NCBI GenBank assembly: GCA_016180435.1
Contig: JACPBG010000004.1
Coordinates: forward strand, 59,660 to 123,659
Direction: 5' to 3'
DNA from: Candidatus Sungiibacteriota bacterium
GTDB taxonomy: Bacteria; Patescibacteriota; Minisyncoccia; Sungbacterales; HO2-52-23
Length of the DNA: 64,000 nucleotides
Both the position numbers and the translations under genes were made by a program. The notes below the pieces were generated by a model. It ran no database searches and was not told where the DNA came from. It saw only the letters and a program-made list of their open reading frames with translations. Positions 4,206 to 17,173 of this stretch are shown in pieces (within the stretch, counting starts at the first letter, position 1; each line of letters starts with the position of its first letter).

Positions 4206-4787
4206 ATGAATACTTTTTTCGAAAAACTTACCAATTCCAAGCCGCAACCCGTTGCGGCCGATATTGGCGCGGAAGAACGCGATGATGAGGCCGCGGTTGT
4301 TGAAAAAGAAGTTACGCCTTCGCAGCCGTCTCCCAAACGCGCGCCCATGCGTAAAATCGCAGCCCCGGTCCAGCTAAAACCCAAACCAACTCAATTAAAA
4401 GTAGAAAGCGAGGAAGCGGAATCAACGGCAGGGGAGAAAGAAAAAGAACTTGAAGAAGAAGGAGAGTTGACTGTAGATATATATGACAATGGTAATGCTA
4501 TTGTAATTCAATCAACCGTAGCCGGAGTAAAGCCGGAGAATTTGGATGTTTCCATAACAACAGATACCGTGACTATTCGCGGGCGAAGGGAAAAATCCGA
4601 AGAGATTAAAGAAGAACATTATTACTACAAGGAACTTTTTTGGGGTTCTTTTTCCCGCTCGGTCATTTTGCCCGAAGAAATTGATGATACTGCCGCAGAG
4701 GCCGCTTTGAAACACGGCCTTCTCACTATCACGCTTCCGAAGAAAAGAAAAGGAGTGGCGCAGAAACTTAAGGTAAAGGTAACCTAA
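4206..4787 (+). CDS. Hsp20/alpha-crystallin family small heat-shock protein with low-complexity N-terminal extension
   Basis: C-terminal alpha-crystallin-like domain LTVDIYDNGNAIVIQSTVAGVKPENLDVSI...GLLTITLPKK. Confidence 0.8.
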   Translation: MNTFFEKLTNSKPQPVAADIGAEERDDEAAVVEKEVTPSQPSPKRAPMRKIAAPVQLKPKPTQLKVESEEAESTAGEKEKELEEEGELTVDIYDNGNAIVIQSTVAGVKPENLDVSITTDTVTIRGRREKSEEIKEEHYYYKELFWGSFSRSVILPEEIDDTAAEAALKHGLLTITLPKKRKGVAQKLKVKVT

Positions 4788-4958
4788 AAATCGCCATCCG
4801 GCGATTTTTTAGTAAATAAGGGTTGGTGTTTATATGATACTGTTCGGACTCATTTTGAGCAAAATCCCGACTGATTTACCCCTTGCTCGCACTCGGACGG
4901 CTCGGCATTCCTCCCCCCAACCCCCTCCTGCCGAGCCGTCCTCACGGTTGTGGCAGTG
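4782..4958. repeat. left terminal inverted repeat (~177 bp) of a TIR-bounded cassette; contains two strong hairpins (terminator-like, and GGACGGCTCGGCA...TGCCGAGCCGTCC)
   Basis: reverse-complement of 9507-9716 nearly base-for-base (right copy has an extra ~26 bp segment). Confidence 0.85.
4786..4812 (+). terminator. rho-independent terminator hairpin AAATCGCC-atcc-GGCGATTT followed by TTTT; also the outer end of the left terminal inverted repeat
   Basis: stem-loop plus T-run directly after hsp20 stop. Confidence 0.7.
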
Positions 4959-4962
4959 GCAT

Positions 4963-5166
4963 TCACGATTTCAATAAACTAGCTCCAAACTCTGAATGAC
5001 ATTTTACACAAAAACCCTTTAGCGTCATTCCAATTGTGTTAATCTTACCGACACTTTCTTTGTAATAGGTGGTACCCCTTACAATATCGCCACTACATCT
5101 ATCGCAACGTCGAGAAACCCGTGCTTTTGTTTCTTTAAGAAACTTAATGCTATCGTATTTACTCAT
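4963..5166 (-). CDS. small zinc-ribbon protein (CxxC...CxxC), last gene of cassette operon; 4-nt overlap with upstream MTase gene
   Basis: RRCDRCSGD ... CVKCHSEFG cysteine pairs; ATGA overlap at 5163-5166. Confidence 0.45.
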   Translation of the reverse strand: MSKYDSIKFLKETKARVSRRCDRCSGDIVRGTTYYKESVGKINTIGMTLKGFCVKCHSEFGASLLKS

Positions 5167-6014
5167 ACGGATTCAGCAAAAGCGTCCGATAGAATCATTA
5201 CCTCTCTGCCTTTGCGCGATTCATAAGCATTATAGTTGAGAGAAAAACTAACGATTTTTCTTTTTGGATATAATGACCTTATTTCTTTCTTGTTATCGTA
5301 AGTAAGTAACCAGAAAGCATCTCGATTCTCATTAAGTTTTTTTGCAAGTGCTTCGTGATTTTCTTTTTGATAGTGGTTGAGGTAAAGTGTTGCCCCCTTT
5401 TCAAAATAAGGGGGGTCGAGATATATGAAAGAGTTTTTCTTGTCTAAATATTCTTCAATCAATTCAAGGCCATCTTTGTTATATACCGAGATTTTGTCCT
5501 TATATCGGCCAAGTTGTTGGATTTTTTTCACCAAACTTTTCTTATTAAATCTTGCATCAATTTTCCATTTCCCTTTTTGGTTTAATCCACCAATAGGTCC
5601 TCCATCTAAAATCCCGGAAATATTAGTTCTATTTAGAAAAAAGGTTGCAAACCCCAGCTTAAAAAGCCATGATTTTGGATTTTCATAAATTGCCTTTTGT
5701 TTTTTCCATTCGTCAATAGTAATTGGGGTTCTGTAAATCTTCCCTACAAACTTTTCTGAATCAAAAATCGCTGACTGCCAAAACGAGTAAATCGCCCTAT
5801 CAAGATCATTAATCACAATTTTTTTGACCCTGCCAGAAAATAAGAGCGCAAGCGCTGCTCCCGCTCCGCCAGCAAACGGTTCAACGTAAGTGAGATTTTT
5901 CAGACCTTGCTCTTTAATAACTTTTTCAAAAAAGGGCACAAGAGAAGTCTTACCTCCAGGATATCGAAGGGGGCTGTGGTAATTTTTCTGATTTTTGTTC
6001 GTTAGTATTTTCAT
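5163..6014 (-). CDS. Dam-family (D12 class) N6-adenine DNA methyltransferase
   Basis: YPGGK near N-terminus, EPFAGGAG (SAM-binding motif I), IYLDPPYFEKG (DPPY motif IV). Confidence 0.85.
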   Translation of the reverse strand: MKILTNKNQKNYHSPLRYPGGKTSLVPFFEKVIKEQGLKNLTYVEPFAGGAGAALALLFSGRVKKIVINDLDRAIYSFWQSAIFDSEKFVGKIYRTPITIDEWKKQKAIYENPKSWLFKLGFATFFLNRTNISGILDGGPIGGLNQKGKWKIDARFNKKSLVKKIQQLGRYKDKISVYNKDGLELIEEYLDKKNSFIYLDPPYFEKGATLYLNHYQKENHEALAKKLNENRDAFWLLTYDNKKEIRSLYPKRKIVSFSLNYNAYESRKGREVMILSDAFAESV

Positions 6015-6035
6015 TCAATTACATTATACGGCAAT

Positions 6036-6962
6036 TTAAAGCGCCTTCCCATACCTTTGGAGGCGTTTGTAAATAGTCGGTAGTTTGGTTTTAAACCATT
6101 CGCCGTTCCATTCTTGCGCCCAAAAAGCGATGCGACTTCTATCGAAGAGTATGCCGACATCTGGGTAATAAAAATCTTGCCAGTCTGATTCATCAACCTC
6201 GTGAGGAACAAAAAAAGAAAAGATTATCCCCGGCATATCCCAAAAAGAGTAATACTGTTGAAGTTCTTTAATTTCCCGCTTCTTGCTTTTGAAATTGTTT
6301 CCAGCGGCGCATTGGCCAAGTAAAAAGAGCTTACTTTTCCTTCCATCTGGAAAAGGGCGCCAAGCCACAATATCAAGACCGGCATCTTTTTTTTGCGAGG
6401 CATTAGAATTATTTTTAATATCGCCTTCATTAACTTTTATCTTCAAGAACTCCAACGCTCTTCTGAAGGGTTTTTTATCCTGCGTCCATGAATTTCTAGG
6501 TGCGCCAAATTGCAAAGATTGAGCGTTCACCTCTTTACTCGAAAGAAAATTTTCCGCAACCAAGGAAGAAAGTTTCTCAAATAGATCAGAGGTTTTTTGT
6601 TTGTCCCAAACTTTTAGCTCTTTTGCGCCTTTTTCCAGTCCGACATATGACACAAGGAGACAAAATAAATATGCCCAATGATTCTTGTTTGGTTTTTTGT
6701 TTTTCACCTCAACGAGTTTCCCATTGAAACGGAAGGGGTAAACTTTATCCAATTTCCTCAATCGGCTCAATAGTTCGCTTGAGACATCTGTTTTAAGATT
6801 TTCAATTGTTGTTTCTCTGTCTGCATATTCTATCTTTAGCTTTGATGCTAAGTCCTCAATGCTGGACGAGTTATCCTTGTCTAACAACGCGTTTACCTCG
6901 AGCCAGTCGGCAAGCTTAATTTTATTAAGTCGTTCTTTTGGTAGATCAATAACAACAGCCAT
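6036..6962 (-). CDS. hypothetical protein, candidate restriction endonuclease partner of the Dam-like methyltransferase
   Basis: position immediately upstream of the MTase in same operon; no motif I can name with certainty (weak PD-(D/E)xK-like stretch GLDIVAWRPF...LLGQCAAG). Confidence 0.3.
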   Translation of the reverse strand: MAVVIDLPKERLNKIKLADWLEVNALLDKDNSSSIEDLASKLKIEYADRETTIENLKTDVSSELLSRLRKLDKVYPFRFNGKLVEVKNKKPNKNHWAYLFCLLVSYVGLEKGAKELKVWDKQKTSDLFEKLSSLVAENFLSSKEVNAQSLQFGAPRNSWTQDKKPFRRALEFLKIKVNEGDIKNNSNASQKKDAGLDIVAWRPFPDGRKSKLFLLGQCAAGNNFKSKKREIKELQQYYSFWDMPGIIFSFFVPHEVDESDWQDFYYPDVGILFDRSRIAFWAQEWNGEWFKTKLPTIYKRLQRYGKAL

Positions 6963-6968
6963 AGCATA

Positions 6969-8108
6969 TTAATTTTTACCGTTACGCTTTGTTCTCATCT
7001 GTTCTAAAATAGTGTTGGCCAATTCAGCAATTTCCTTCATTTGTTTATAAACCTCCTCGTTTCCTTTATATCGATTTAGATAACCGGCCGTTTTTCTAAG
7101 ATTGTTGAGGGCTTTAAAAACGAAATCTTCCAATTTATAATCCTCTGTATCCGTGTAGGATAAAGCATTTTCGAGTGAAGAAAATTCCTGCGAGTTTTCT
7201 CTTAAGTAGTTTGTAGCCAACTTATGTCCCAGAACATTATCGAGGTATTTCAAATCAGGATTTTGGGATTTAATAACAGATTTTTTAGCGCCATCCTTAC
7301 TCCCAAAGAGAAATTCAAGCAATAACCTAAGATTATTAAAATACTTTCTGGGAACTGGATTTTCAGAAAATATCTCCTTTTGTTTGTTTCTTATACCGAG
7401 ATACTTTCTAGTATTGTCATAACCTAGAATTGTGTAGAGGTGGGAAAAGTAAAATCTTCTCAACTCAACTTCTTCTGCTTTGAAATATCCCTCCTTTTCT
7501 GCCTGCTCTAAAACCCGGAGACCGTTGCACATTTTGATAACGGTCAGGTGTCTGTCTCCGATTCTCTCGGCAATCTTCTCAATCGGTATTTTATATTCTT
7601 TGTGAACCCGAAGTGCATATACGGCCTTACTGTAGGAATCCCATTCTTGTGGGCCATTTATATGCCTAAAGCCCAGATAGGTCCAAAGCGTTTGACGATC
7701 CGGGTATATTGCTACCGGTATCTGTTTAGTAAGTTGTGTCTTTAACTTCTCACTAATCTTTTTTTCTGATTTTAAAAGCGTTTTTATTGCAGCTAATCTT
7801 CTATTACCTTCAATTACAACAAATTTGCCCTTGTGTTTTTTGGATTCAACAGTGAGTAAGGGCTCGGTGTTATAAAAGCCATTTTTTTCAAAGGAATCAA
7901 TCAGCTCGTCCAGATGCATTTCTTTTTGTAGCTTACTAAGAATCTCGTTGTCAGATGCATTTTTTGACAAGCCAGCAAATCGTGGATTCTCGCTATCAAG
8001 TAGCAATCTATCCAACTTAACATAGTTGATTTGGATGGGATCTTGCAGAGTTTTGGTTTTTTGTTCGTTCATATTTTTATTCTTCAGAATATTCCGAATA
8101 CTCATCAA
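6969..8108 (-). CDS. ParB/Srx-like nuclease-domain protein with long C-terminal extension
   Basis: LLLDSENPRF and VIEGNRRLAAIKTLL resemble ParB N-terminal domain boxes (NPR... / (V/I)xEG(E/N)RRxRAA). Confidence 0.5.
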   Translation of the reverse strand: MMSIRNILKNKNMNEQKTKTLQDPIQINYVKLDRLLLDSENPRFAGLSKNASDNEILSKLQKEMHLDELIDSFEKNGFYNTEPLLTVESKKHKGKFVVIEGNRRLAAIKTLLKSEKKISEKLKTQLTKQIPVAIYPDRQTLWTYLGFRHINGPQEWDSYSKAVYALRVHKEYKIPIEKIAERIGDRHLTVIKMCNGLRVLEQAEKEGYFKAEEVELRRFYFSHLYTILGYDNTRKYLGIRNKQKEIFSENPVPRKYFNNLRLLLEFLFGSKDGAKKSVIKSQNPDLKYLDNVLGHKLATNYLRENSQEFSSLENALSYTDTEDYKLEDFVFKALNNLRKTAGYLNRYKGNEEVYKQMKEIAELANTILEQMRTKRNGKN

Positions 8109-9195
8109 GAATTGTATCCGTCATATGTTCCAACCTTTTCTCTTTTGCTAATTCATAAATGGAGTCATAGGGAATATATGAACAGAGCTCCGACAAAGGC
8201 CCTTTCTCCATGACCGCAAAGATTGGGCGAGAAATTTGTTTAAAAACTTCATTTCGTCTGTTGTTGGGCGCAACAATATGAATTTTAATTTCTATATTTG
8301 GCAAAAGAGAAAGTAGATCGGCCATTCTTAAAATACCGGAGTAAATCGACGTCGTTCCCTCAACTTCAAACGCTCGAATTATTGTACGCCCTTGAATCCA
8401 AAGAACGTCGATATTTTTAATCGTTCTTAATGTGATGTCATCAAAAGAAAATGGAAGCTCCTCCAATAAGACATTTTCTTTCGGCTTCCATACTTCTAAT
8501 ACTCCCACGCGATCATTTCTTGGTAACCACACCTTAAAACCTAATTTCTCTCCAATTTCCGAGAGTTTGGCCTGAACCCTGATCGATTCCCGCTCCTCGC
8601 CTACTGGTACTACTTCTTGTGCTTCTTTAGTGGGTTCTTCATCTTCCGGAACTGACACAGAAACTTCCTTTTTGCCAGCCAGACGCATTTTTGAAGATTT
8701 TAATTTCTTTTCATCATTTTCACTAAATTTATATTCAACGAGTTTTTGAGATTGTTCAATGAGTATTTTTTCCAAAAACTCGCAATCGGTTTTTGGCCAC
8801 AAACGAGGACTCGAAAAAATCACATACGTCCATTTGTTGCTATCTTTGGCGAATTCTTTTGTAAAAGAAAGATTATTCCAAATAAAGTCCTCGTGAACAG
8901 GAATCGCTTTTTCAAAAGGTAACCAAACTATAGGTTTTACATTAAAGCGCAAAATAAATGGATCATCTTCTTTTTGAAACAGAGGTGTCTTATCTATAAA
9001 ATATTTACTGGTAATTTCCAAAACACCAACGAAGCGTTGTATCCTTGTTACATAGCAAATAAACTTGTCGCCCGGGCCAATATTTTGATTTTCTACATAA
9101 GTTTTTCTGGAAATCCGAAAACCGCTTACATCCTGTTTGGATTGTTCAAATGCTCGTGCGGTTTCCGGAGAAAATAGATCAATAAAGTAACTCAT
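8077..9195 (-). CDS. EVE/PUA-like N-terminal domain fused to C-terminal putative PD-(D/E)xK-like nuclease domain (type IV / modification-dependent restriction-like)
   Basis: N-term GPGDKFICYVTRIQRFVGVLEITSKYF...DPFILRFNVKPIVWL fits PUA-like beta-barrel pattern; C-term IDVLWIQGRTIIRAFEVEGTTSIYSGILRMADL nuclease-like core; acidic low-complexity linker. Confidence 0.45.
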   Translation of the reverse strand: MSYFIDLFSPETARAFEQSKQDVSGFRISRKTYVENQNIGPGDKFICYVTRIQRFVGVLEITSKYFIDKTPLFQKEDDPFILRFNVKPIVWLPFEKAIPVHEDFIWNNLSFTKEFAKDSNKWTYVIFSSPRLWPKTDCEFLEKILIEQSQKLVEYKFSENDEKKLKSSKMRLAGKKEVSVSVPEDEEPTKEAQEVVPVGEERESIRVQAKLSEIGEKLGFKVWLPRNDRVGVLEVWKPKENVLLEELPFSFDDITLRTIKNIDVLWIQGRTIIRAFEVEGTTSIYSGILRMADLLSLLPNIEIKIHIVAPNNRRNEVFKQISRPIFAVMEKGPLSELCSYIPYDSIYELAKEKRLEHMTDTILDEYSEYSEE

Positions 9196-9197
9196 AA

Positions 9198-9407
9198 CTA
9201 TTTCATTAAATCATCAAGCGATACGCCGAGCGCGTCCGCAATTTTCTTAACCGTCTCAATGGTTGGATTAGGTGTCGTTCCGGCTTCAATCTTGGCGATA
9301 GTATGAAAAGCAAGGTTTGCCCTTTTTGAGAGGACATCTTGAGAAATACCGAGCTTGTTTCGGTATTTCTTTATATTCTCGCCAATTGTCGCTCCTTGCT
9401 TTGACAT
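9198..9407 (-). CDS. XRE-family helix-turn-helix transcriptional regulator (controller-protein-like), first gene of cassette operon
   Basis: LGISQDVLSKRANLAFHTIAKIEAG ... IADALGVSLDDL classic HTH_3. Confidence 0.85.
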   Translation of the reverse strand: MSKQGATIGENIKKYRNKLGISQDVLSKRANLAFHTIAKIEAGTTPNPTIETVKKIADALGVSLDDLMK

Positions 9408-9506
9408 AGTTCGTATAGTTATACTATACTAGTTAGTAGATACTCGTTGGTTTAACTATCACAAGTTTAGTATATGCAATTTTTAGGATTTAATCAATTG
9501 GTTGGT

Positions 9507-9716
9507 CACTGCCACAACCGTGAGGACGGCTCGGCAGGAGGGGGTTGGGGGGAGGAATGCCGAGCCGTCCGAGTGCGAGCCGACCAGCAGGGCGGCGAGC
9601 CAATCAAGGGGTAAATCAGTCGGGATTTTGCTCAAAATGAGTCCGAACAGTATCATATAAACACCAACCCTTATTTACTAAAAAATCGCCGGATGGCGAT
9701 TTTTTAGTAAATAAGG
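9507..9716. repeat. right terminal inverted repeat (~210 bp), outer end is a perfect extended palindrome ccaacccttatttactaaaaaatcgcc-ggat-ggcgattttttagtaaataagggttgg, abutting tRNA-Ala 3' end
   Basis: reverse complement of 4782-4958. Confidence 0.85.
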
Positions 9717-9718
9717 GT

Positions 9719-9789
9719 TGGACCTACGGGGAGTCGAACCCCGACCTCATCCATGCCATGGATGCGTAATGCCGCTTTACTATAGGCCC
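9719..9789 (-). tRNA. tRNA-Ala (anticodon GGC), G3:U70 present, CCA not encoded
   Basis: cloverleaf folds by hand: acceptor GGGCCTA/TAGGTCC, anticodon loop ATGGCAT, T-loop TTCGACT. Confidence 0.85.
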
Positions 9790-9817: not shown

Positions 9818-10303
9818 TTACGGTATATTTTTATACACATCGATAATTCGTTTAATCGTAGCGGCTAATTCTTTGTCGTCCCGGATATCAGTATCTTGTA
9901 AAGATTCTTCAAGCGCCCGTACCGCCGCTTTTTTATTGGATTGAGATTCCATGAATACCGTAAGATGGATAGCCGCGAGCCGCTGTTTTTTATTTTTTTC
10001 GATCATCGGCGCGTCATCGGATAATTTTTGTTCCATAATTTTTTTCAAAATCGATTGCAGCGCGGCACGTTCCGGAGTTGTTTTTTCGACGGTTTCACGT
10101 TTCGATTTCTCTTCCATCCCCACTTCGCCCCCCTTCGCAAAACCCTCCGATGCGGCAACGGAGAGGAATGCACCGAGCGCAAGGGCGGATGTCTTTTTTC
10201 CGATGCGTTTCAATGCCAACGATTTTTCCTGTTTCAATTTATTGTCCGTACGCACCTCTTTATGCTTCGGTATATTCTCTGATGGTTGCCGTTCAAAATT
10301 CAT
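9818..10303 (-). CDS. hypothetical protein with N-terminal hydrophobic anchor/signal, charged low-complexity body
   Basis: ORF only. Confidence 0.4.
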   Translation of the reverse strand: MNFERQPSENIPKHKEVRTDNKLKQEKSLALKRIGKKTSALALGAFLSVAASEGFAKGGEVGMEEKSKRETVEKTTPERAALQSILKKIMEQKLSDDAPMIEKNKKQRLAAIHLTVFMESQSNKKAAVRALEESLQDTDIRDDKELAATIKRIIDVYKNIP

Positions 10304-10343
10304 ATAAAAAATATTTTACGAATAATAATTTTATACGACCGTA

Positions 10344-10790
10344 TTAAATTCGCGTATAAGATAATACCAATAATCCGACTAAAACAATTGTAAACACTAT
10401 TTCAGATTTTGAAAATATCGGTAAAAATCCTCTAATCTTATGCTTGAACGGATAAAAATACTGTTTTTCGTCTTGATCGGGCCAGTCCAGAATTAAATGC
10501 ACAAGATAAGCAATAAAGAAATAAAAAGCACCAGTTATATTTATAAATAATATTGGAATAGTCATAACAGCTGCTCCTAAAATAGAATGCGCATATTTTG
10601 TTTTATAGCGTATATTGTGGGCGTCTTCAAATCTCATGCTGTCTATGATTTTATTCCAAGAAAAAATTTTATGCCGGTATAAGACAAATAAATGGTCAAG
10701 GTCGGGAATAATTGAACCCGCCAGCCAAAACCAAGAAAATTGGTAATTATTTACTGGCATCGTACCTATTATTAAGTGCGCAAAAATCAT
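10344..10790 (-). CDS. membrane-bound metal-dependent hydrolase-like protein (YdjM/DUF457-like)
   Basis: LIIGTMPVNNYQFSWFWLAGSIIPDLDHLF pattern (H..G....PDxDH) and 4 TM. Confidence 0.4.
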   Translation of the reverse strand: MIFAHLIIGTMPVNNYQFSWFWLAGSIIPDLDHLFVLYRHKIFSWNKIIDSMRFEDAHNIRYKTKYAHSILGAAVMTIPILFINITGAFYFFIAYLVHLILDWPDQDEKQYFYPFKHKIRGFLPIFSKSEIVFTIVLVGLLVLSYTRI

Positions 10791-10900
10791 ATTATTTTTT
10801 TATCCTCAATTCTAAACTTTGCACGAACCCATTTTGAGCATAACCTTGGGCCATAGTGGGCGCAAGGTGACCTCCGCAGCTCACCCAGCCCCGCCATTGG

Positions 10901-10938
10901 CTCCTTTTCAATTAGAAATCAATTTTTGTGGGTTTTGG
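10901..10938. repeat. 38-bp inverted repeat, left copy (tccttttcaattagaaatcaatttttgtgggttttggg)
   Basis: perfect reverse complement at 12105-12142. Confidence 0.8.
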
Positions 10939-11040
10939 GGCGTTACTGACTTGCCGCTAGGTAGGCCGGAGTTACCCGAGTATGATGTATAAAATGATTT
11001 GCCACAAACAAATTTATTGTTACACCCCTGCGAACTAATT

Positions 11041-12048
11041 TTATCGCATTCTTAACTCGCACGCTTCTCGTGAGCTCATGGACTTGCCGTCAACAATAAA
11101 AGAATGTTTTATAAGCGAATTATCAAAGGTGCTGCACGGATTCGGATCAGAATAAGAAGTTTTATAAGCTAGGATACACTTTTTAAAGTTTGGCGCATAA
11201 ACAAAAAGTTCGTTGCAAATAGTCACGTCTCTTGATTTTATGGCGTAAGCAACTATACAAGCACCTGTCGCATCTTCCGGTAAATCGATTTTTATATTGA
11301 GATCATTTTTGGGCTCTGGTCTAATTTTATACTTTGAAGAGGTCAAGCGCGCTACTTCTGGTTTTTGGCACTCAACAACTGATTTTGCGGCATAAATCCT
11401 GTTGTAGAAAATAGCTTCTGCAAAAGTATAGTTAAAAATATATGCCCCCATCAATATTACTATTAAAAATATGAACCCTATTCTGTAGTAAAAAAATGAT
11501 TTTACTTTACTAATACCGGATATAACTCCTGCTACCCACATCATGCCTGCCAGGTAAGCCGTGTATAAAATATAGGACATTGTATTAACTAAATATAAAG
11601 GGGTTTCTACATCAAGAAAGAATTTTAAGTTTTCGGCACCGACTAGAAATATGTTTAACAAATAATGCCTTAAAAGCGTTATGCCGACTCCATCATAAAT
11701 ATTAGAATCTCTAACCGCTGGTATTAAAAGTAGTACCAAGAATAATATTGCTAAAAAATATTTTTTGGTAAGAAATTTTTTAGTTGTAAAAAATATTACT
11801 AGTGCATAACCTACCACAAGTCCAAGATTTATTAAGGCGTTAAATGGAGCCCAAAGAATACTAGGAAACAAGGCTGTGTAAAATACAAATCCACATCCTC
11901 CAAAGGAGCAACCATAATAAATCAAAGGCGCTGAAAGCGCTATAATAAACGAGAAGAAAAACAATCTTTTCCTAGAATATACAAACTTTTCTGTAATAGT
12001 TCCAGTGGACATTAATTTAAGAATAACTTGTCGGTCTTTTATTATCAA
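11041..12048 (-). CDS. AT-rich polytopic membrane protein with Cys-rich C-terminal extracytoplasmic region; hypothetical
   Basis: ~8 TM helices, C-terminal CxxxC-rich tail; markedly lower GC than neighbours. Confidence 0.55.
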   Translation of the reverse strand: MIIKDRQVILKLMSTGTITEKFVYSRKRLFFFSFIIALSAPLIYYGCSFGGCGFVFYTALFPSILWAPFNALINLGLVVGYALVIFFTTKKFLTKKYFLAILFLVLLLIPAVRDSNIYDGVGITLLRHYLLNIFLVGAENLKFFLDVETPLYLVNTMSYILYTAYLAGMMWVAGVISGISKVKSFFYYRIGFIFLIVILMGAYIFNYTFAEAIFYNRIYAAKSVVECQKPEVARLTSSKYKIRPEPKNDLNIKIDLPEDATGACIVAYAIKSRDVTICNELFVYAPNFKKCILAYKTSYSDPNPCSTFDNSLIKHSFIVDGKSMSSREACELRMR

Positions 12049-12104
12049 GTTCCGATTACAAGTCTGGTATATGTGCGGATTAGCTCCACTTTTGCGCTAG
12101 CAAA

Positions 12105-12142
12105 GCCCAAAACCCACAAAAATTGATTTCTAATTGAAAAGG
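12105..12142. repeat. 38-bp inverted repeat, right copy
   Basis: reverse complement of 10901-10938. Confidence 0.8.
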
Positions 12143-12194
12143 AAATTCCGCGCGCCCACCTTCTCCGCTAAAGGCGGGTTGCGGGTTTTTGGAG

Positions 12195-12298
12195 CGAGTC
12201 CCAGCATGATAATACTTTCCCGATTTTTGGGGGAGGTTGCCTCGCCGCTTCGCGGCTCGGCTCGGCGGCTTTGCGCAAGGCGCAAAGCCAAAAAATCC
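12195..12298. repeat. ~104-bp inverted repeat, left copy (upstream of recombinase start)
   Basis: reverse complement of 13775-13876 with few mismatches. Confidence 0.8.
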
Positions 12299-12361
12299 CA
12301 CGGCGCGGAAAACGAAAAGGAAGCGGATAAGGAATATCTAAAATCAATAATTTAAGAAATT

Positions 12362-13972
12362 ATGCTCAAACCAAAATATTTTCTCTACGCTCGCAAGAGC
12401 ACCGAGGATGATGACAAACAAGTAATGTCTATTGAAGCACAGCTTTTTGAATTGCGTGAATTTGCCAAAAGAGAAAATATTGAAATTCTTGAAGAATTTA
12501 CCGAGGCGAAAAGCGCAAAGACGCCGGGACGAGAAGTATTTAATTTAATGATGGGAAAAATTGAAAAATTGGAGGGAGTTGGAATCCTCGCGTGGCACCC
12601 AGATCGTCTCGCTAGAAATTCTGTTGATGGTGGTAAAATCGTTTATTTTGTTGATACGCAAAAAATAATTTCTTTGCGCTTTCCGCAATTTTGGTTTGAG
12701 CCAACTCCGCAAGGGAAATTTATGTTGCAAGTGGCGTTCGGACAGAGCAAATATTTTTCTGACAACTTGGTGGAAAATGTAAAGCGCGGTATCCGCCAAA
12801 AACTCCGCCGTGGCGAGTGGTTGACGCTCGCACCCTTTGGCTATGTGAACAATCCGAAAACGAGACAAATTGAACCGCACCCTACCAAATCAAAAATTGT
12901 CGTGCGAGCGTTTGAGGAGTTTGCCAAAGGAACGCATACGCTCAAAAGTATGTCGGAGTTTTTGGCGGAGCTTGGCGTTGAAACAAAGAACCGAACGCCA
13001 CTTGCGAAATGCAGTATTCACCACTTACTTACCAATCGCGCCTATCTCGGTTTTGTCGCGCACCACGGCGAATATCACGAGGGCACATTTCCGCCAATTC
13101 TTTCCCTCGCAACCTTTGAAGCCGTGCAGGAAGTATTGAAAAGGAAAGCGAAACCTCGCAAATCCAAACAGAGGCACAATTTCCCTTTTACCGGACTACT
13201 CACCTGCGGAGAGTGCGGCTCGGCGATCACCGCGCAATTCGCGCACGGCAATGGCGGAACATATCGCTACTATCGGTGCACGCGGAAAAAGGGAAATTGC
13301 GCTCAAAGATATTTGCGAGAGGATTTACTCGTTTCGCAATTAAAAGCACGGCTTCAAAGCGTTGCGCTTTGCGATGAGTGGATAAAGAAAATGTTAGCGA
13401 AAGTAAATGAATGGGAAAAAGAAAAAGTCCACTCATCGCAAACATTCGTCCAAAATCTGGAAACCAAAAGAACGGCCACGCAAGAGAAACTGGATAAACT
13501 TGTCTCGGCGTATATTGACGGCGACATACCCAAAGAAAACTATTTGAAAAAGAAAGAGGAGTTATTGAAGCAAAAAGTTTCTTTTGCGTCCCAAAAATCG
13601 GATTTTGGACGAACGGGAAAGAATTGGATCGAACCCTTGCGGAGTTGGATTTTAGATATACAGAAAGCCGAAAAATTGTCGCAGAGCGACAATTTTGAGG
13701 ACATTAAGGCGTTTGTCCAAAAAGTTGGAACGAACCATCAACTTTTGGACAAATCCGCTTCATTTTCGTTTTCTGCGCCGTGGGATTATGCGGCTTTGCG
13801 TCTCGCGCAAAGCCGCCAAGCCGAGGGGCGAAGCGGCGAGGCAACCTCCCCCAAAAATCGGGAAAGTATTATCATGTCCCCTCGGGAAGAATTGAACTCC
13901 CATTTTCTCCTTAGGACGGAGACGCTCTGTCCGTTGAGCTACGAGGGGGTTTGGATATTCGCTAAAATATAG
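12362..13972 (+). CDS. large serine recombinase (resolvase/invertase catalytic domain + recombinase domain + zinc ribbon); annotated ORF reads through right repeat and tRNA-Arg so true stop may be as given or protein C-terminus is fortuitous read-through
   Basis: YARKSTEDDDKQ (catalytic Ser region), LAWHPDRLARN, VKRGIRQKLRRGEWLTLAPFGY, CGECGS...YRYYRC. Confidence 0.85.
   Translation: MLKPKYFLYARKSTEDDDKQVMSIEAQLFELREFAKRENIEILEEFTEAKSAKTPGREVFNLMMGKIEKLEGVGILAWHPDRLARNSVDGGKIVYFVDTQKIISLRFPQFWFEPTPQGKFMLQVAFGQSKYFSDNLVENVKRGIRQKLRRGEWLTLAPFGYVNNPKTRQIEPHPTKSKIVVRAFEEFAKGTHTLKSMSEFLAELGVETKNRTPLAKCSIHHLLTNRAYLGFVAHHGEYHEGTFPPILSLATFEAVQEVLKRKAKPRKSKQRHNFPFTGLLTCGECGSAITAQFAHGNGGTYRYYRCTRKKGNCAQRYLREDLLVSQLKARLQSVALCDEWIKKMLAKVNEWEKEKVHSSQTFVQNLETKRTATQEKLDKLVSAYIDGDIPKENYLKKKEELLKQKVSFASQKSDFGRTGKNWIEPLRSWILDIQKAEKLSQSDNFEDIKAFVQKVGTNHQLLDKSASFSFSAPWDYAALRLAQSRQAEGRSGEATSPKNRESIIMSPREELNSHFLLRTETLCPLSYEGVWIFAKI
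13775..13876. repeat. ~104-bp inverted repeat, right copy, lying inside 3' end of recombinase ORF and abutting tRNA-Arg(CCT) 3' end
   Basis: reverse complement of 12195-12298. Confidence 0.8.
13877..13948 (-). tRNA. tRNA-Arg (anticodon CCT); overlapped by 3' end of recombinase ORF
   Basis: cloverleaf by hand: acceptor CCCCTCG/CGAGGGG, D-arm GCTC..GAGC, anticodon loop GTCCTAA, T-loop TTCAATT; backbone very similar to tRNA-Arg(TCT) at 17102. Confidence 0.7.
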
Positions 13973-13984
13973 TATCATAAATTT

Positions 13985-15058
13985 ATGCCTTACACAAACT
14001 ATGAGGAAAAAATAATTGATACGGTAAAAAAAGTGATGCCCGCGGTGGTGTCTATTGTTGTTGGGAAGACCTATGACGAAATTGTAAAAGAGCGTCCGTA
14101 TGAGCTCATGGTGCCGCACGGCGATCATGTGGATTTGCCGCCGCCGGAGGAAGATTTGCCGCACACTCCATCCGGTAAAGTGCGTATTGGCGGAGGATCA
14201 GGATTTATTATTGACGCCTCCGGTCTTATTTTAACCAATAAACACGTGGTTTTTGACGAAAAAGCAGAATATCTTGTAACTACCGCGGCTGAAGACACGT
14301 ATCCCGCTAAAGTTATTGCGCGTGATCCGTTAAATGATGTGGCAATCGTAAAAATAGAAGCGGAGAATTTGCAGGTTATTTCTCTGGGAAATTCAAATGC
14401 CATAGAGCTCGGGCAAACCGCGCTTGCGGTTGGCACGGCTCTGGGTGAATTCCAGAATACGGTTTCGGCCGGAATTGTTTCCGGACTGTCGCGTTTTATC
14501 AATGCCATTACCGATATGGAAGGACATTCGGAACGGCTGCGGGGGCTGATTCAGACCGATGCCGCCATAAATCCGGGAAATTCCGGCGGGCCGCTGGTAA
14601 ATTTAAAAGGCGAGGCAATCGGAATTAACGCGGCCGTGGTTTTCGGCGCGCAAAACATAGGGTTTGCGATTCCCATCAATAAAGCCAAGTACGATCTTGA
14701 TGAATTAAAAAAATACGGTCGTATTCGCCGGCCTTTTCTGGGCATCCGCTATATCCTTTTAAACCCCATGCTTAAACGCAGATTTCGTTTGGCGGTTGAT
14801 CGGGGCGCATTTGTGTTGCGCGAGGGGGTTCCGGGGCGATCGGCCGTGATAGCCGGATCAGCCGCGGAAAAAGCGGGCATACATGAGACCGATATAATCC
14901 TTGAGCTTAATCAAATCAAAATAGACGAAAAAACCTCGCCCGAGGATATCTTGGAAGGTGCGGCTTTGGGCACAAAAATACCCGTAAGAATTTTACGGGA
15001 CGGCAAAGAAGAAATTTTAACAGCACCAGTTGAAGAGCGCGCGATATCAACCGGATAG
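13985..15058 (+). CDS. htrA: HtrA/DegP-family serine protease with C-terminal PDZ domain
   Basis: catalytic triad contexts TNKHVV (His), NDVAIVKIE (Asp), GNSGGPLVN (Ser). Confidence 0.85.
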   Translation: MPYTNYEEKIIDTVKKVMPAVVSIVVGKTYDEIVKERPYELMVPHGDHVDLPPPEEDLPHTPSGKVRIGGGSGFIIDASGLILTNKHVVFDEKAEYLVTTAAEDTYPAKVIARDPLNDVAIVKIEAENLQVISLGNSNAIELGQTALAVGTALGEFQNTVSAGIVSGLSRFINAITDMEGHSERLRGLIQTDAAINPGNSGGPLVNLKGEAIGINAAVVFGAQNIGFAIPINKAKYDLDELKKYGRIRRPFLGIRYILLNPMLKRRFRLAVDRGAFVLREGVPGRSAVIAGSAAEKAGIHETDIILELNQIKIDEKTSPEDILEGAALGTKIPVRILRDGKEEILTAPVEERAISTG

Positions 15059-15063
15059 ATACG

Positions 15064-15447
15064 TTAGGCCGTGCCAGCCGCCTTTTTTACGCGCTCTACA
15101 ATTTCCGGGAGCGCGAAATTTGCTTTTACAAGATAATCAATCGCGCCCAGGCGTTTGGCTTCTTCAATATCGGTTTCTTCCGAGAGGTTTGAAAGAAACA
15201 TGGCTTTCATTTCCGGTCCTCCGGGTTCGCGCCGTATTTTGCGCAGTGTGTCAAAGCCGTTTTGGTCCGGAAGCAGTACGTCAAGTAGAATAATATCCGG
15301 CGCGGATTCTTTGAATTTTTCAACACCCTCGGCTCCGGTACGCGCCACCGAAATTTCAAAACCCGCATTGGAGAATTCATGCGTCAAAAGTTCCACCATA
15401 AAGGCGTCGTCCTCAACCAATAGAATTTTATGAGAAGTTTCTGCCAT
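15064..15447 (-). CDS. single-domain CheY-like response regulator (receiver domain); start taken at MAETSHKILLVEDD rather than longest ORF (15573)
   Basis: ILLVEDD...DIILLDVLLPDQNGFD...KAMFLSN receiver-domain pattern. Confidence 0.75.
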   Translation of the reverse strand: MAETSHKILLVEDDAFMVELLTHEFSNAGFEISVARTGAEGVEKFKESAPDIILLDVLLPDQNGFDTLRKIRREPGGPEMKAMFLSNLSEETDIEEAKRLGAIDYLVKANFALPEIVERVKKAAGTA

Positions 15448-15451
15448 AAAT

Positions 15452-15571
15452 GGGATTGTTGCCGAATGCGCTTTCGTAGCGAAAATGATGAATTTTGAGA
15501 CAAAATCGCTGAATAAACTTGGCGGCCTATCTGAAAGATAAGCCAAGAAGATGGTATTCGGCAACAGTCCC
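15452..15571 (-). ncRNA. ~120-nt structured 5' leader element immediately upstream of response-regulator start codon; second copy at 62732-62893
   Basis: outer stem GGGATTGTTGCC/GGCAACAGTCCC, internal hairpins CGCTttcgtAGCG and TTGGC..TATCtgaaaGATA..GCCAA; conserved blocks shared with 62732-62893. Confidence 0.45.
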
Positions 15572-17101: not shown

Positions 17102-17173
17102 GCCCTCGTAGTTCAACGGACAGAACAGCGCTCTTCTAAGGCGCATATGGGGGTTCAATTCCCTCCGAGGGCG
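17102..17173 (+). tRNA. tRNA-Arg (anticodon TCT), starts 1 nt after hisS stop
   Basis: acceptor GCCCTCG/CGAGGGC, anticodon loop CTTCTAA, T-loop TTCAATT. Confidence 0.85.

Follow-up and report, generated by a model that had tools for sequence, protein, structure and literature searches.

Inverted repeats around a large serine recombinase gene as candidate attachment sites of a small tRNA-associated element in a Sungiibacteriota genome

The recombinase gene and its inverted repeats

The window analysed here, a 64,000-nucleotide stretch of a Candidatus Sungiibacteriota contig, contains a large serine recombinase (LSR) gene that is bracketed by long inverted repeats and abuts a tRNA gene, which raises the question of what the repeats do there. 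The initial annotation had placed ~104-bp arms of ~95% identity at 12195-12298 and 13775-13876. A repeat search of the window recovered the same pair at 12205-12328 and 13753-13876, so that the pair is real and these coordinates were close but inexact: the left arm begins 10 nt later, and both arms extend 22-30 nt further inward. The arms are 124 nt long, 92% complementary, and separated by 1424 nt, and pairwise alignment showed that mismatches are confined to the inner half while the outer 64 nt are identical. A chance origin is excluded because 25-26-mers taken from the arms have exactly two occurrences in the 64 kb of the window and none in 100 shuffles. Each arm contains a GC-rich palindrome (family D1 of the repeat search), and an Rfam scan of the whole window returned six tRNAs only, the repeats being without a match. 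As had been noted earlier, the 3' end of the recombinase ORF includes the right arm, which abuts a tRNA; the outer end of the arm (13876) adjoins the 3' end of tRNA-Arg(CCT).

The assignment of the ORF to the serine recombinases was likewise upheld by its domains, which comprise the resolvase catalytic domain (PF00239, aa 7-153, E 6e-22), Recombinase (PF07508, DBD1, aa 174-261), and a zinc ribbon (PF13408, DBD2, aa 275-331). The YARKSTED motif with S13 and the cysteines C282, C285, C306, and C313 are invariant in an alignment of 28 homologs. The protein is distantly similar in sequence to the SPbeta and A118 integrases. Its residues ~335-440, the region considered for the coiled-coil insertion in DBD2 that governs directionality in LSRs, align partly with residues 77-275 of A118 Int. 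Conservation stops near aa 475-480 (SFSFxxPWDF), and the C-terminal tail is read-through across the right repeat and then antisense through the tRNA. No record of the exact protein was present in the contig index.

We consider it probable (roughly three in four) that the window holds a ~3.1-kb integrated mobile element at ~10803-13879, consisting of the LSR gene and one cargo ORF and inserted precisely at the tRNA-Arg(CCT) 3' end, and that the repeats are the two P' arms of LSR attachment sites. This reading is based on sequence comparison and gives the locus the following parts, in which IR-L and IR-R are the left and right repeats and X'/X is a second inverted pair.

10791-10845, minus strand: putative attR (site 1) and left boundary of the element, from sequence reading and its P-arm motif
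10902-10939, unstranded: left copy of the residual X'/X pair (38 nt, 100% identical), the probable distal P arm of attR
11041-12048, minus strand: cargo ORF of 335 aa with low G+C, at the position of the variable cargo in relatives
12106-12143, unstranded: right copy of the residual X'/X pair (38 nt, 100% identical)
12144-12204, plus strand: decayed remnant of a putative P arm at the internal attP (site 2), aligned with site 2 of the related loci L001 and L004
12205-12328, plus strand: IR-L, the putative P' arm of an inverted attP within the element, ending 33 nt short of the LSR ATG, from repeat search and alignment
12362-13972, plus strand: LSR ORF of 536 aa with Resolvase, Recombinase, and Zn_ribbon_recom domains
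13753-13876, minus strand: IR-R, the putative P' arm of attL, overlapping the last ~40 codons of the LSR ORF
13877-13948, minus strand: tRNA-Arg(CCT), the putative B arm of attL and right boundary

The putative attR reads on the minus strand from GCTCAAAATGGGTTCGTGCAAAGTTTAGAATTGA (P arm) through a GGA core at 10803-10805 to TAAAAAAAATAAT (B' side) and the ATG of YdjM. The window has a single copy of its 29-nt P-arm motif, and shuffled sequence has none; this is the same motif that stands left of IR-L in three relatives (L001, L004, and L081), and at 10806-10845 it adjoins the GGA core that is common to the tRNA end. At the internal site, the conserved TCAAAATnGGTTCGnGCAAAGnnTAGAAT motif has been lost from 12144-12204, and a search of this interval for GTTCGNGC did not find it. 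The window copy looks old, given that its arms are 92% identical compared with at least 98% in most relatives and that the P half of its internal attP is lost. The cargo ORF had no match in Pfam, NCBIfam, or PADLOC. Elsewhere in the window, an X-flanked cargo element at tRNA-Ala(GGC) is missing at the syntenic site of a close relative.

Site anatomy, cargo, and orientation in related loci

We surveyed 80 homologous LSR loci from Patescibacteria (orientation counts refer to 81 loci), and an inverted pair of 90-193 nt surrounds the LSR gene in 64 of the 80, the two arms being 100% identical in 29 of these 64. In every relative that bears the pair, it accompanies the recombinase gene. In 51 loci, IR-R overlaps a tRNA 3' end by 4-6 nt at its outer end, with tRNAs of many identities. 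Sequence comparison indicates that the tRNA-end LSR arrangement is common to many relatives in these ultra-small (CPR) bacteria.

Beside the LSR cassette, relatives carry the second inverted pair, X'/X, around 1-5 kb of variable cargo; it was found in 20 of the ~33 loci with enough left flank, and its right arm overlaps the start of IR-L. Apart from the decayed window copy and L059, every one of the 33 informative loci has a conserved X arm before IR-L; the native tRNA trailer is situated on the far side of X' rather than next to IR-L. The cargo between X' and X is unrelated across loci and includes defence systems, transporters, and enzymes, and we saw no replication gene in the sampled cargo. 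A small XRE-type HTH gene stands beside X in ~10 of 31 loci, and such genes are the only recurring ones in the left flank.

Clean site triples were present in 12 loci, in the forms tRNA-O-IR, X-O-IR, and X-O-B', where O is a core of 4-8 nt. In these loci B' resembles a native tRNA trailer with a terminator hairpin, and we saw no conserved motif in the B' arm. From their sequences, tRNA-core-IR reads as attL, X-core-IR as an intact, internal, inverted attP, and X-core-native tRNA trailer as attR. Two further loci bear on the junctions. In L106, whose LSR is 91% identical to that of the window, the IR-R sequence is fused directly to the P-arm motif of the window's attR, a joint that by its sequence is the predicted excision junction; the predicted attP junction thus occurs in another contig. 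In L104, a 399-nt, 100% identical X-O-IR repeat lies on both sides of the LSR, together with 1.7 kb of cargo; this contig begins exactly at the repeat boundary, and its ends showed no terminal overlap. Across loci, IR similarity tracks LSR similarity more closely (Spearman 0.49) than X similarity does (0.31), and individual pairs of loci are discordant (for example L005/L061; X 82%, IR 49%), a pattern that fits exchange at the core.

The tRNA is on the 3' side of the LSR gene in ~66 of the 81 loci and in the opposite orientation in one, L072, which reads tRNA-IR-LSR 5' end; a pattern count of orientations gave 18:0 for the standard arrangement. In ~19 metagenome contigs the 3' end of the LSR gene faces the X arm, so both LSR orientations occur in other contigs, though contigs of the alternative arrangement might result from an assembler taking a wrong path where the repeat is longer than its k. 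Many contigs end at the repeat, and the repeat lengths at contig ends equal k-mer sizes, which accounts for the ~2-kb contigs on which many LSR homologs are found as assembly breaks. Given that the opposite orientation is present in rare relatives, inversion of the LSR cassette or integration through either attP is plausible, but it is not the main state. A viral contig collection gave no hits to the standard or flipped arrangement, and thus there is no sign that these elements are phages.

Proposed target recognition and route of integration

To compare the two kinds of site, we measured the distance from the start of the IR to GTTCGNGC in the X arm and to the T-loop motif GTTC(G/A)ANNC in the tRNA, using relatives with an intact X arm. 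The distance to GTTCGNGC exceeds that to the tRNA T-loop GTTCGANNC by 5 bp in 8 loci and by 6 bp in 32 loci. In structures and models of serine integrases, the motif of the zinc-ribbon domain is 5 bp (4 bp in SPbeta) nearer the centre in attB than in attP (PMC11722253), and the offset observed here matches this known difference. In the attB half-site, the outer motif bound by the LSR may be the tRNA T-loop GTTCGANNC; in attP it may be GTTCGNGC, placed 5-6 bp further out, and strand exchange would occur in the short core at the acceptor-stem end, the discriminator, and C(C)A. The T-loop of tRNA-Arg(CCT) in the window, GTTCAATTC, is at 13889-13897. We also considered a promoter in the motif left of IR-L (-35 TTCAAA / -10 TAGAAT), and a sigma-70 consensus scan found no site in L005 (5650-6050) or in the X motif of the window; this reading was rejected, and the motif is better read as a recombinase half-site.

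In the route that we propose, the right repeat copy and the tRNA would form attL (tRNA-core-IR), the left copy would be part of a second, internal attP (X-core-IR) that is inverted, directly upstream of the LSR gene, and decayed in its P half, and the far end at ~10803-10845 would be attR (X-core-native downstream DNA). If attL recombined with attR, the element would be released as a circle whose LSR arc and cargo arc are divided by an inverted pair of identical attP copies. Before insertion, the empty site is predicted to have read ...TTCCCGAGGGGA followed by TAAAAAAAATAATATG (the start of YdjM). No orthologous empty tRNA-Arg(CCT) site was found, and a metagenome search for tRNA-Arg(CCT)-YdjM returned 0 hits, so the mobility of the window element rests on analogy; contigs with an identical YdjM protein are 1.1-1.2 kb long and in the occupied state. 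The YdjM homologs of relatives were rejected as an empty site, given that they follow tRNA-Tyr and are hence not orthologous. We also recognised no candidate for a recombination directionality factor (RDF), which serine integrases require for excision.

Catalysis by the window LSR and the circular form would follow from this scheme, as would some role for the second attP, for which inversion, integration through either site, and exchange of arcs between elements are candidates. Classical LSRs are not known to recombine attP with either a second attP or attL, and LSR-driven inversion would therefore be non-canonical. Half-sites of LSRs need only ~25 bp, and the att-site reading leaves unexplained why identity spans 115-160 nt in the IR and 150-270 nt in X. 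It is possible, though we regard it as doubtful, that modular double-attP elements form a natural cassette-exchange system of small circles with an inverted attP pair, a recombinase arc, and a cargo arc. We can offer only tentatively the corresponding proposal that such elements integrate via either site, flip the recombinase arc, and swap the cargo arc, as in engineered recombinase-mediated cassette exchange, and it is similarly speculative that the tRNA T-loop serves them as a near-universal landing motif. Two variants of the route were rejected: for a single-stranded dumbbell, in which the attP copies pair into one site in the manner of CTX phage or integron attC, double-strand cleavage by a serine recombinase would generate chromosome ends capped by hairpins, and separate LSR-only or cargo-only circles do not agree with the inverted, non-palindromic cores that flank each arc.

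Alternative explanations and known systems

The inversion of the recombinase gene that was first suggested for this locus would make it a self-flipping, Hin-like switch, in which the LSR recombines the arms and toggles its own expression or that of a neighbour. The geometry permits this, since the sites are inverted and the core is non-palindromic, and L072, with the LSR 5' end beside tRNA-IR, the ~19 metagenome contigs with the 3' end beside X, and the frequent contig breaks at the repeat are all in its favour. We nevertheless judge it improbable, given that one orientation prevails by ~66:1 among genome loci and by 18:0 in the pattern count, that inversion between near-identical arms alters nothing outside the segment, where we found no orientation-dependent gene or promoter, and that the motif left of IR-L lacks a sigma-70 promoter score; it also leaves the attL/attP/attR anatomy and the variable cargo unaccounted for. 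Hin/Gin-type invertases have ~190 aa and a C-terminal HTH, whereas this enzyme is an LSR of the integrase type, 536 aa long, with recombinase and zinc-ribbon domains. Members of the Hin/Gin/Cin/Pin group are likewise serine recombinases acting on inverted sites, but neither their C-terminal HTH and need for Fis and an enhancer nor their 26-bp sites and switching of promoters or gene ends by inversion were found here. The premise that invertases normally sit beside rather than inside their segment does not hold generally, as Salmonella hin sits within its own invertible segment.

A minimal IS-like transposon, in which a mobile 1.67-kb IR-LSR-IR unit uses the repeats as terminal inverted repeats and targets tRNA 3' ends, would explain the tight bracketing of the gene, the ~2-kb contigs of many homologs, and the closer tracking of LSR similarity by IR than by X. 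We find this very unlikely: a conserved X arm and not host DNA precedes IR-L in the 33 informative loci (the window copy and L059 excepted), the native tRNA trailer stands beyond X', the cassette ends differ from the element termini, the ~2-kb contigs reflect assembly breaks, and a serine recombinase would invert rather than excise a cassette with inverted, non-palindromic cores. The NCBIfam IS607 score of the LSR is 21 bits against a cut-off of 110. Least credible of all is a repeat with no role in recombination, either the dispersed MITE-like family raised in the initial annotation, which we reject, or an RNA-level repeat in which the 5' UTR pairs with the mRNA 3' end. The GC-rich palindromes are compatible with it, as is the 124-bp panhandle into which a transcript over both arms could fold, but a search for further copies returned just the two arms in 64 kb, the pair is tied to the recombinase gene in relatives, Rfam gave no match, and in dozens of genomes the outer ends match the tRNA end and the X arm to the nucleotide, which an RNA role does not predict. 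Among the explanations first put forward, imperfect att sites come nearest to the evidence, with the right arm as the probable P' arm of attL and the left as that of an internal inverted attP.

The attachment-site reading finds its closest parallel in serine integrases (A118/LI, SPbeta SprA, phiC31, and Bxb1), which share the three-domain enzyme, the two imperfectly symmetric attP half-sites, an outer motif shifted by ~5 bp between attP and attB, and an integrase gene at one end of the element that reads toward the junction. Known LSR phages mostly target protein-coding genes, and tRNA targets usually belong to tyrosine integrases (PMC4383910). The elements described here differ in that they target the 3' ends of tRNA genes with many different identities, apparently via the universal T-loop, in the second complete inverted attP and the 115-160-nt repeats that bracket the integrase gene, and in their size of 3-8 kb, with no phage genes and no recognisable RDF. 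tRNA genomic islands and tycheposons likewise integrate at tRNA 3' ends and supply the last tRNA bases, and they too have small, variable cargo that includes defence genes (10.1101/2020.12.28.424599). They use a tyrosine recombinase, however, whereas the serine enzyme here lies outside the enzyme type by which Islander defines such islands; tRNA islands have a displaced tRNA 3' fragment as a far-end direct repeat where only a 4-8-nt core is common here, and the long inverted repeats set these elements apart from both. SCCmec CcrA/B and XisF are LSRs too, which carry gene cassettes to a single chromosomal site, and they are the best NCBIfam similarities of the window LSR, at scores far under the family cut-offs (95 vs 900 bits); CcrA/B target rlmH and have no double attP. 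The free form that L104 suggests, with a predicted size of 3.9 kb, would resemble the yeast 2-micron plasmid (Flp/FRT), a small circle whose two long, identical inverted repeats carry the recombinase site and split it into two unique arcs, one encoding the recombinase. Flp is a tyrosine recombinase, though, and the 2-micron plasmid replicates and amplifies via inversion, while an L104-type circle is deduced from sequence. The literature that we searched contained no description of a double-attP architecture in LSR elements.

Patescibacteria (CPR) have tiny genomes, and their routes of gene exchange are little known. If our reading is true, a small element that brings defence systems, transporters, and enzymes to tRNA-adjacent sites would be very common among them, given that >6,500 close LSR homologs were among the matches listed in our first homolog search. 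The repeats account for the frequent breaks of CPR assemblies at LSR genes. The use of the universal tRNA T-loop as the outer motif of attB would represent a new targeting logic for serine integrases, and attP and attB would be readable straight from genomes, which would be useful for picking integrases for genome engineering. The double-attP layout would be a natural one that resembles the design used for engineered cassette exchange, and if exchange through it is true, it would provide genome-reduced CPR bacteria with an integron-like trade of defence and metabolic genes.

Inverted repeats, the recombinase family and tRNA genes

A repeat search and pairwise alignment confirmed the inverted repeats reported around the large serine recombinase (LSR) gene in the initial annotation, whose description held overall apart from the limits of the arms. 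The single long inverted pair within 11000-15500 and its surroundings are as follows.

12205-12328: left arm (IR-L), 124 nt
12362-13972: LSR ORF, 536 aa, with Resolvase, Recombinase and Zn_ribbon_recom domains
13753-13876: right arm (IR-R), 92% complementary to IR-L
13877-13948, minus strand: tRNA-Arg(CCT) (ARAGORN and Rfam)

The outermost 64 nt of the arms show no differences, and all ten mismatches fall in the inner half. Two 25-26-mers from the repeat each had exactly two occurrences in the 64-kb window and none in 100 shuffled versions. Given this placement of tRNA-Arg(CCT), the outer end of the right arm touches the discriminator base; the LSR ORF continues across the right arm and then antisense across the tRNA. 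A 69-nt inverted pair of 78% identity (13879-13947 / 17103-17171) was set aside as merely the paralogous tRNA-Arg(CCT) and tRNA-Arg(TCT) genes on opposite strands.

More than 6,500 LSR homologs with 60-89% identity were found among the matches listed, with named examples from Parcubacteria, Yanofskybacteria and Lloydbacteria, and many lie on ~2-kb contigs. Among solved structures, the SPbeta and A118 integrases come closest (E 1e-7 to 1e-9), and NCBIfam matches to CcrB, CcrA and XisF fall far under the family cut-offs. Across 28 aligned homologs, conservation ends near aa 475-480 (SFSFxxPWDF), and the tails resemble antisense-translated tRNA T-arms (e.g. ..GRDSNP..). We then compared upstream with downstream sequence at each of 80 LSR loci (L001-L080) from species-representative genomes. 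An inverted pair of 90-193 nt surrounds the gene at 64 of the 80 loci, with 100% identity between arms at 29 of these 64, and ten further loci have a shorter pair; the 92% of the window is among the lowest identities of the family. At 51 loci, including the window, the downstream arm runs at its outer end into the 3' end of an opposite-strand tRNA gene, with an overlap of 4-6 nt in nearly all and of 1 nt in the window, and the tRNA identities include Arg, Leu, Lys, Ala, Pro, Glu, Gly, Ser and Val. Elements with near-identical arms occupy three different tRNA-Ser genes. Counting cut-off repeats and tRNAs visible in the sequence but missed by ARAGORN, a tRNA lies on the LSR 3' side at ~66 of 81 loci, and on the 5' side at L072 only.

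Several pairs end at a contig end and have lengths typical of assembler k-mers (55, 99, 131). Many contigs of L001-L080 end within these arms or within the X repeat described below, at repeat lengths of 55, 99, 121, 131 or 141 nt, and it seems that assemblies of CPR genomes break systematically because of these elements. In another homolog locus (L089), the gene is split in the oriented contig (aa 81-504 at 1589-315, aa 55-80 at 3069-2992), suggesting a ~1.4-kb insertion within the recombinase gene.

Attachment-site anatomy and proposed tRNA recognition

The 40 nt left of the upstream arm are kept across unrelated loci (..TCAAAAtnGGTTCGnGCAAAGnnTAGaAT..), and comparison of left flanks with one another showed that this region, X, recurs inverted 1-5 kb further left as X' in 20 of the ~33 loci having enough left flank. 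The right arm of X shares a few bases with the start of the upstream LSR repeat. At 12 loci, three junctions around a short core (O) could be read in the tRNA sense.

Site 1, left boundary: X-O-B'
Site 2, internal: X-O-IR, oriented opposite to sites 1 and 3
Site 3, tRNA side: tRNA-O-IR

The core is 4-8 nt long (CCACCA, TCACAAA, GCACA, CCGCAG and others) and corresponds to the acceptor-stem end, discriminator and C(C)A, while B' is unique to each locus and usually has a terminator-like hairpin, as a native tRNA trailer would. Judged by this arrangement, site 3 reads as attL (B-O-P'), site 2 as attP (P-O-P') and site 1 as attR (P-O-B'), with P and P' the element-side and B and B' the target-side arms; the alternative reading of the repeats as att sites proved right. 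It follows that the LSR-flanking pair would be the P' arm present twice (attL and internal attP), and X'/X the P arm present twice (internal attP and attR). The integrated element would thus, unusually, retain an intact internal attP in inverted orientation. Sequence identity spans 115-160 nt (IR) and 150-270 nt (X), compared with the ~25 bp required by a half-site, for which the simplest guess is gene conversion between the inverted copies. No recognisable recombination directionality factor was found in these elements. At site 1 of L016 (about 1300-1580), the putative native trailer beyond the core, GCACATTCAGAAACTTCTCGTTCC, resembles another P' arm, which suggests remnants of an earlier element and hence tandem accretion at a single tRNA.

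By eye, both X-O-IR arms carry A(A/T)ACTT ~10-16 nt from the junction and a CNCGAA-type motif farther out. The outer X motif GTTCGNGC begins 23-24 nt from the IR start and the tRNA T-loop GTTC(G/A)ANNC 18 nt from it; without exception among 40 loci, the offset is either 5 bp (8 loci) or 6 bp (32 loci). The DBD2 (zinc-ribbon) motif of serine integrases is shifted towards the centre in attB relative to attP, by 5 bp, or by 4 bp for SPbeta (PMC11722253). We infer that the LSR reads the tRNA T-loop as its outer attB motif; in the 12-locus junction comparison, the B' arm showed no conserved motif. Within the LSR gene, the codons GGA ACG AAC (G456-T457-N458; window 13727-13735) are invariant at the nucleotide level in essentially all homologs (top-codon fraction 0.99; mean over the gene 0.65) and lie 143-153 nt from the core in L001-L080 and the window; their reverse complement, GGTTCGTTCC, is similar to the GGTTCG half-site motif, and they may be an extra candidate binding site.

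The window copy, its cargo and neighbouring elements

On the minus strand at 10806-10845 the window reads GCTCAAAATGGGTTCGTGCAAAGTTTAGAATTGA, a motif occurring there once, followed by GGA and the start of the YdjM gene. The tRNA-Arg ends ..CGAGGGGA|CATGAT.., which makes GGA the shared core and places the element at about 10803-13879. It holds the LSR and one cargo ORF of low G+C (335 aa) without a family match. A residual X'/X pair of 38 nt persists (10902-10939 / 12106-12143), and alignment with L001 and L004 showed loss of the P-arm motif at the internal site and private substitutions in both IR arms; the LSR ORF is intact. By its sequence, the copy looks old and decaying. G+C is 29-35% at 10200-12000, spanning the YdjM gene region and the cargo ORF, against 45-50% around.

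In relatives, ORFs between X' and X bear no relation from one locus to another (among them HAD hydrolases, a sodium:solute symporter, a beta-helix/PKD protein, a GTP cyclohydrolase II-methyltransferase fusion, an ABC transporter, a DNA methylase fused to a LexA-like domain, an M64 peptidase, a Fic protein and an APH kinase), and a small XRE-type HTH gene often adjoins X. X similarity is decoupled from IR and LSR similarity across locus pairs (L005/L061: X 82%, IR 49%, LSR 63%; L005/L006: LSR 95%, IR 84%, X 58%), a pattern consistent with arcs being swapped at the core.

Elements lacking the LSR were also observed. One lies in the window at 4786-9721, beside tRNA-Ala(GGC), and has a variant X-type motif, GCTCAAAATGAGTCCGAAC.

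4786-4885 / 9605-9704: perfect inverted arms
4885-4958 / 9507-9580: perfect inverted arms
9664-9721: 58-nt palindrome, CCAACCCTTATTTACTAAAAAATCGCC GGAT GGCGATTTTTTAGTAAATAAGGGTTGG
9719-9789, minus strand: tRNA-Ala(GGC)

Its cargo comprises PD-Lambda-5 A and B (D12 methyltransferase), an EVE/type II REase-like protein, a 308-aa protein of unknown kind and an XRE regulator, and the element is absent from the syntenic site (HSP20 then tRNA-Ala) of a close relative, L081. Only the palindrome separates the X arm from tRNA-Ala, a position occupied in relatives by the LSR cassette; its arms are native tRNA-Ala trailer plus terminator, found also at the far end (4786-4826), and it does not readily follow from simple attP x attB recombination. 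At the same tRNA-Arg(CCT) site, the close-relative loci L081 (4305-5787) and L085 (2354-3684) carry an X'/X element without LSR, with a 285-aa ORF and an XRE gene, in which ~106 nt of non-repeated DNA space X from the tRNA. Upstream of a YdjM homolog at L117 (3722-4000), the last ~19 nt of tRNA-Tyr are directly repeated ~150 nt on (CAAATCCCTCCCGGCGCAC), apparently a classic tyrosine-integrase island scar, so both kinds of tRNA-targeting element would occur among these bacteria.

Gene orientation and relation to known systems

Inversion of the LSR gene, proposed in the initial annotation, is possible but secondary, as the other orientation recurs in relatives and is rare. We scanned metagenomes for an X motif that has, 150-178 nt beyond it, the invariant GGAACGAAC of the LSR 3' region in reverse complement, and obtained 23 contigs, in ~19 of which the LSR 3' end faces X. 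At L072, tRNA-O-IR adjoins the LSR 5' end. Among the 80 genome loci, in contrast, the standard pattern was counted 18 times and the flipped one 0, so the other orientation exists, or at any rate turns up repeatedly, at low frequency; misassembly across repeats that exceed k is a residual explanation of the flipped contigs. On metagenome contig L106, whose LSR is 91% identical to that of the window, the window IR-R sequence is joined via TGGTGC to the window site-1 motif TCAATTCTAAACTTTGCACGAACCC, a junction matching the predicted product of attL x attR excision. On another, L104 (3,923 nt), a 399-nt X-O-IR repeat flanks the LSR on both sides with 100% identity, the cargo arc is 1.7 kb and the start of the contig coincides exactly with the boundary of the repeat; such a layout would be expected from a circle bearing two inverted attP copies, and no terminal overlap proving circular closure was found.

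Both domains and site geometry identify the window enzyme as an LSR family member, and the system, as read from its sites, appears to behave like a serine-integrase integrative element. The idea of a MITE-like repeat family was wrong: only two copies lie within the 64-kb window, and the defining features of a MITE were sought and not found. Defining features of a Hin-type switch and of an IS607-like element were likewise looked for and not found, and for this reason we assign the system to none of the three. Unlike described serine-integrase elements, it appears to target tRNA 3' ends via the T-loop, retains a duplicated, inverted attP and is a very small cargo carrier restricted to CPR bacteria. 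The nearest ecological analogue is the tycheposons, which mostly have tyrosine recombinases and direct repeats (10.1101/2020.12.28.424599), and a literature search found no description of this element architecture. The window copy points to an element architecture that is widespread and apparently undescribed, and whose proposed mechanism of recognition can be put to the test.
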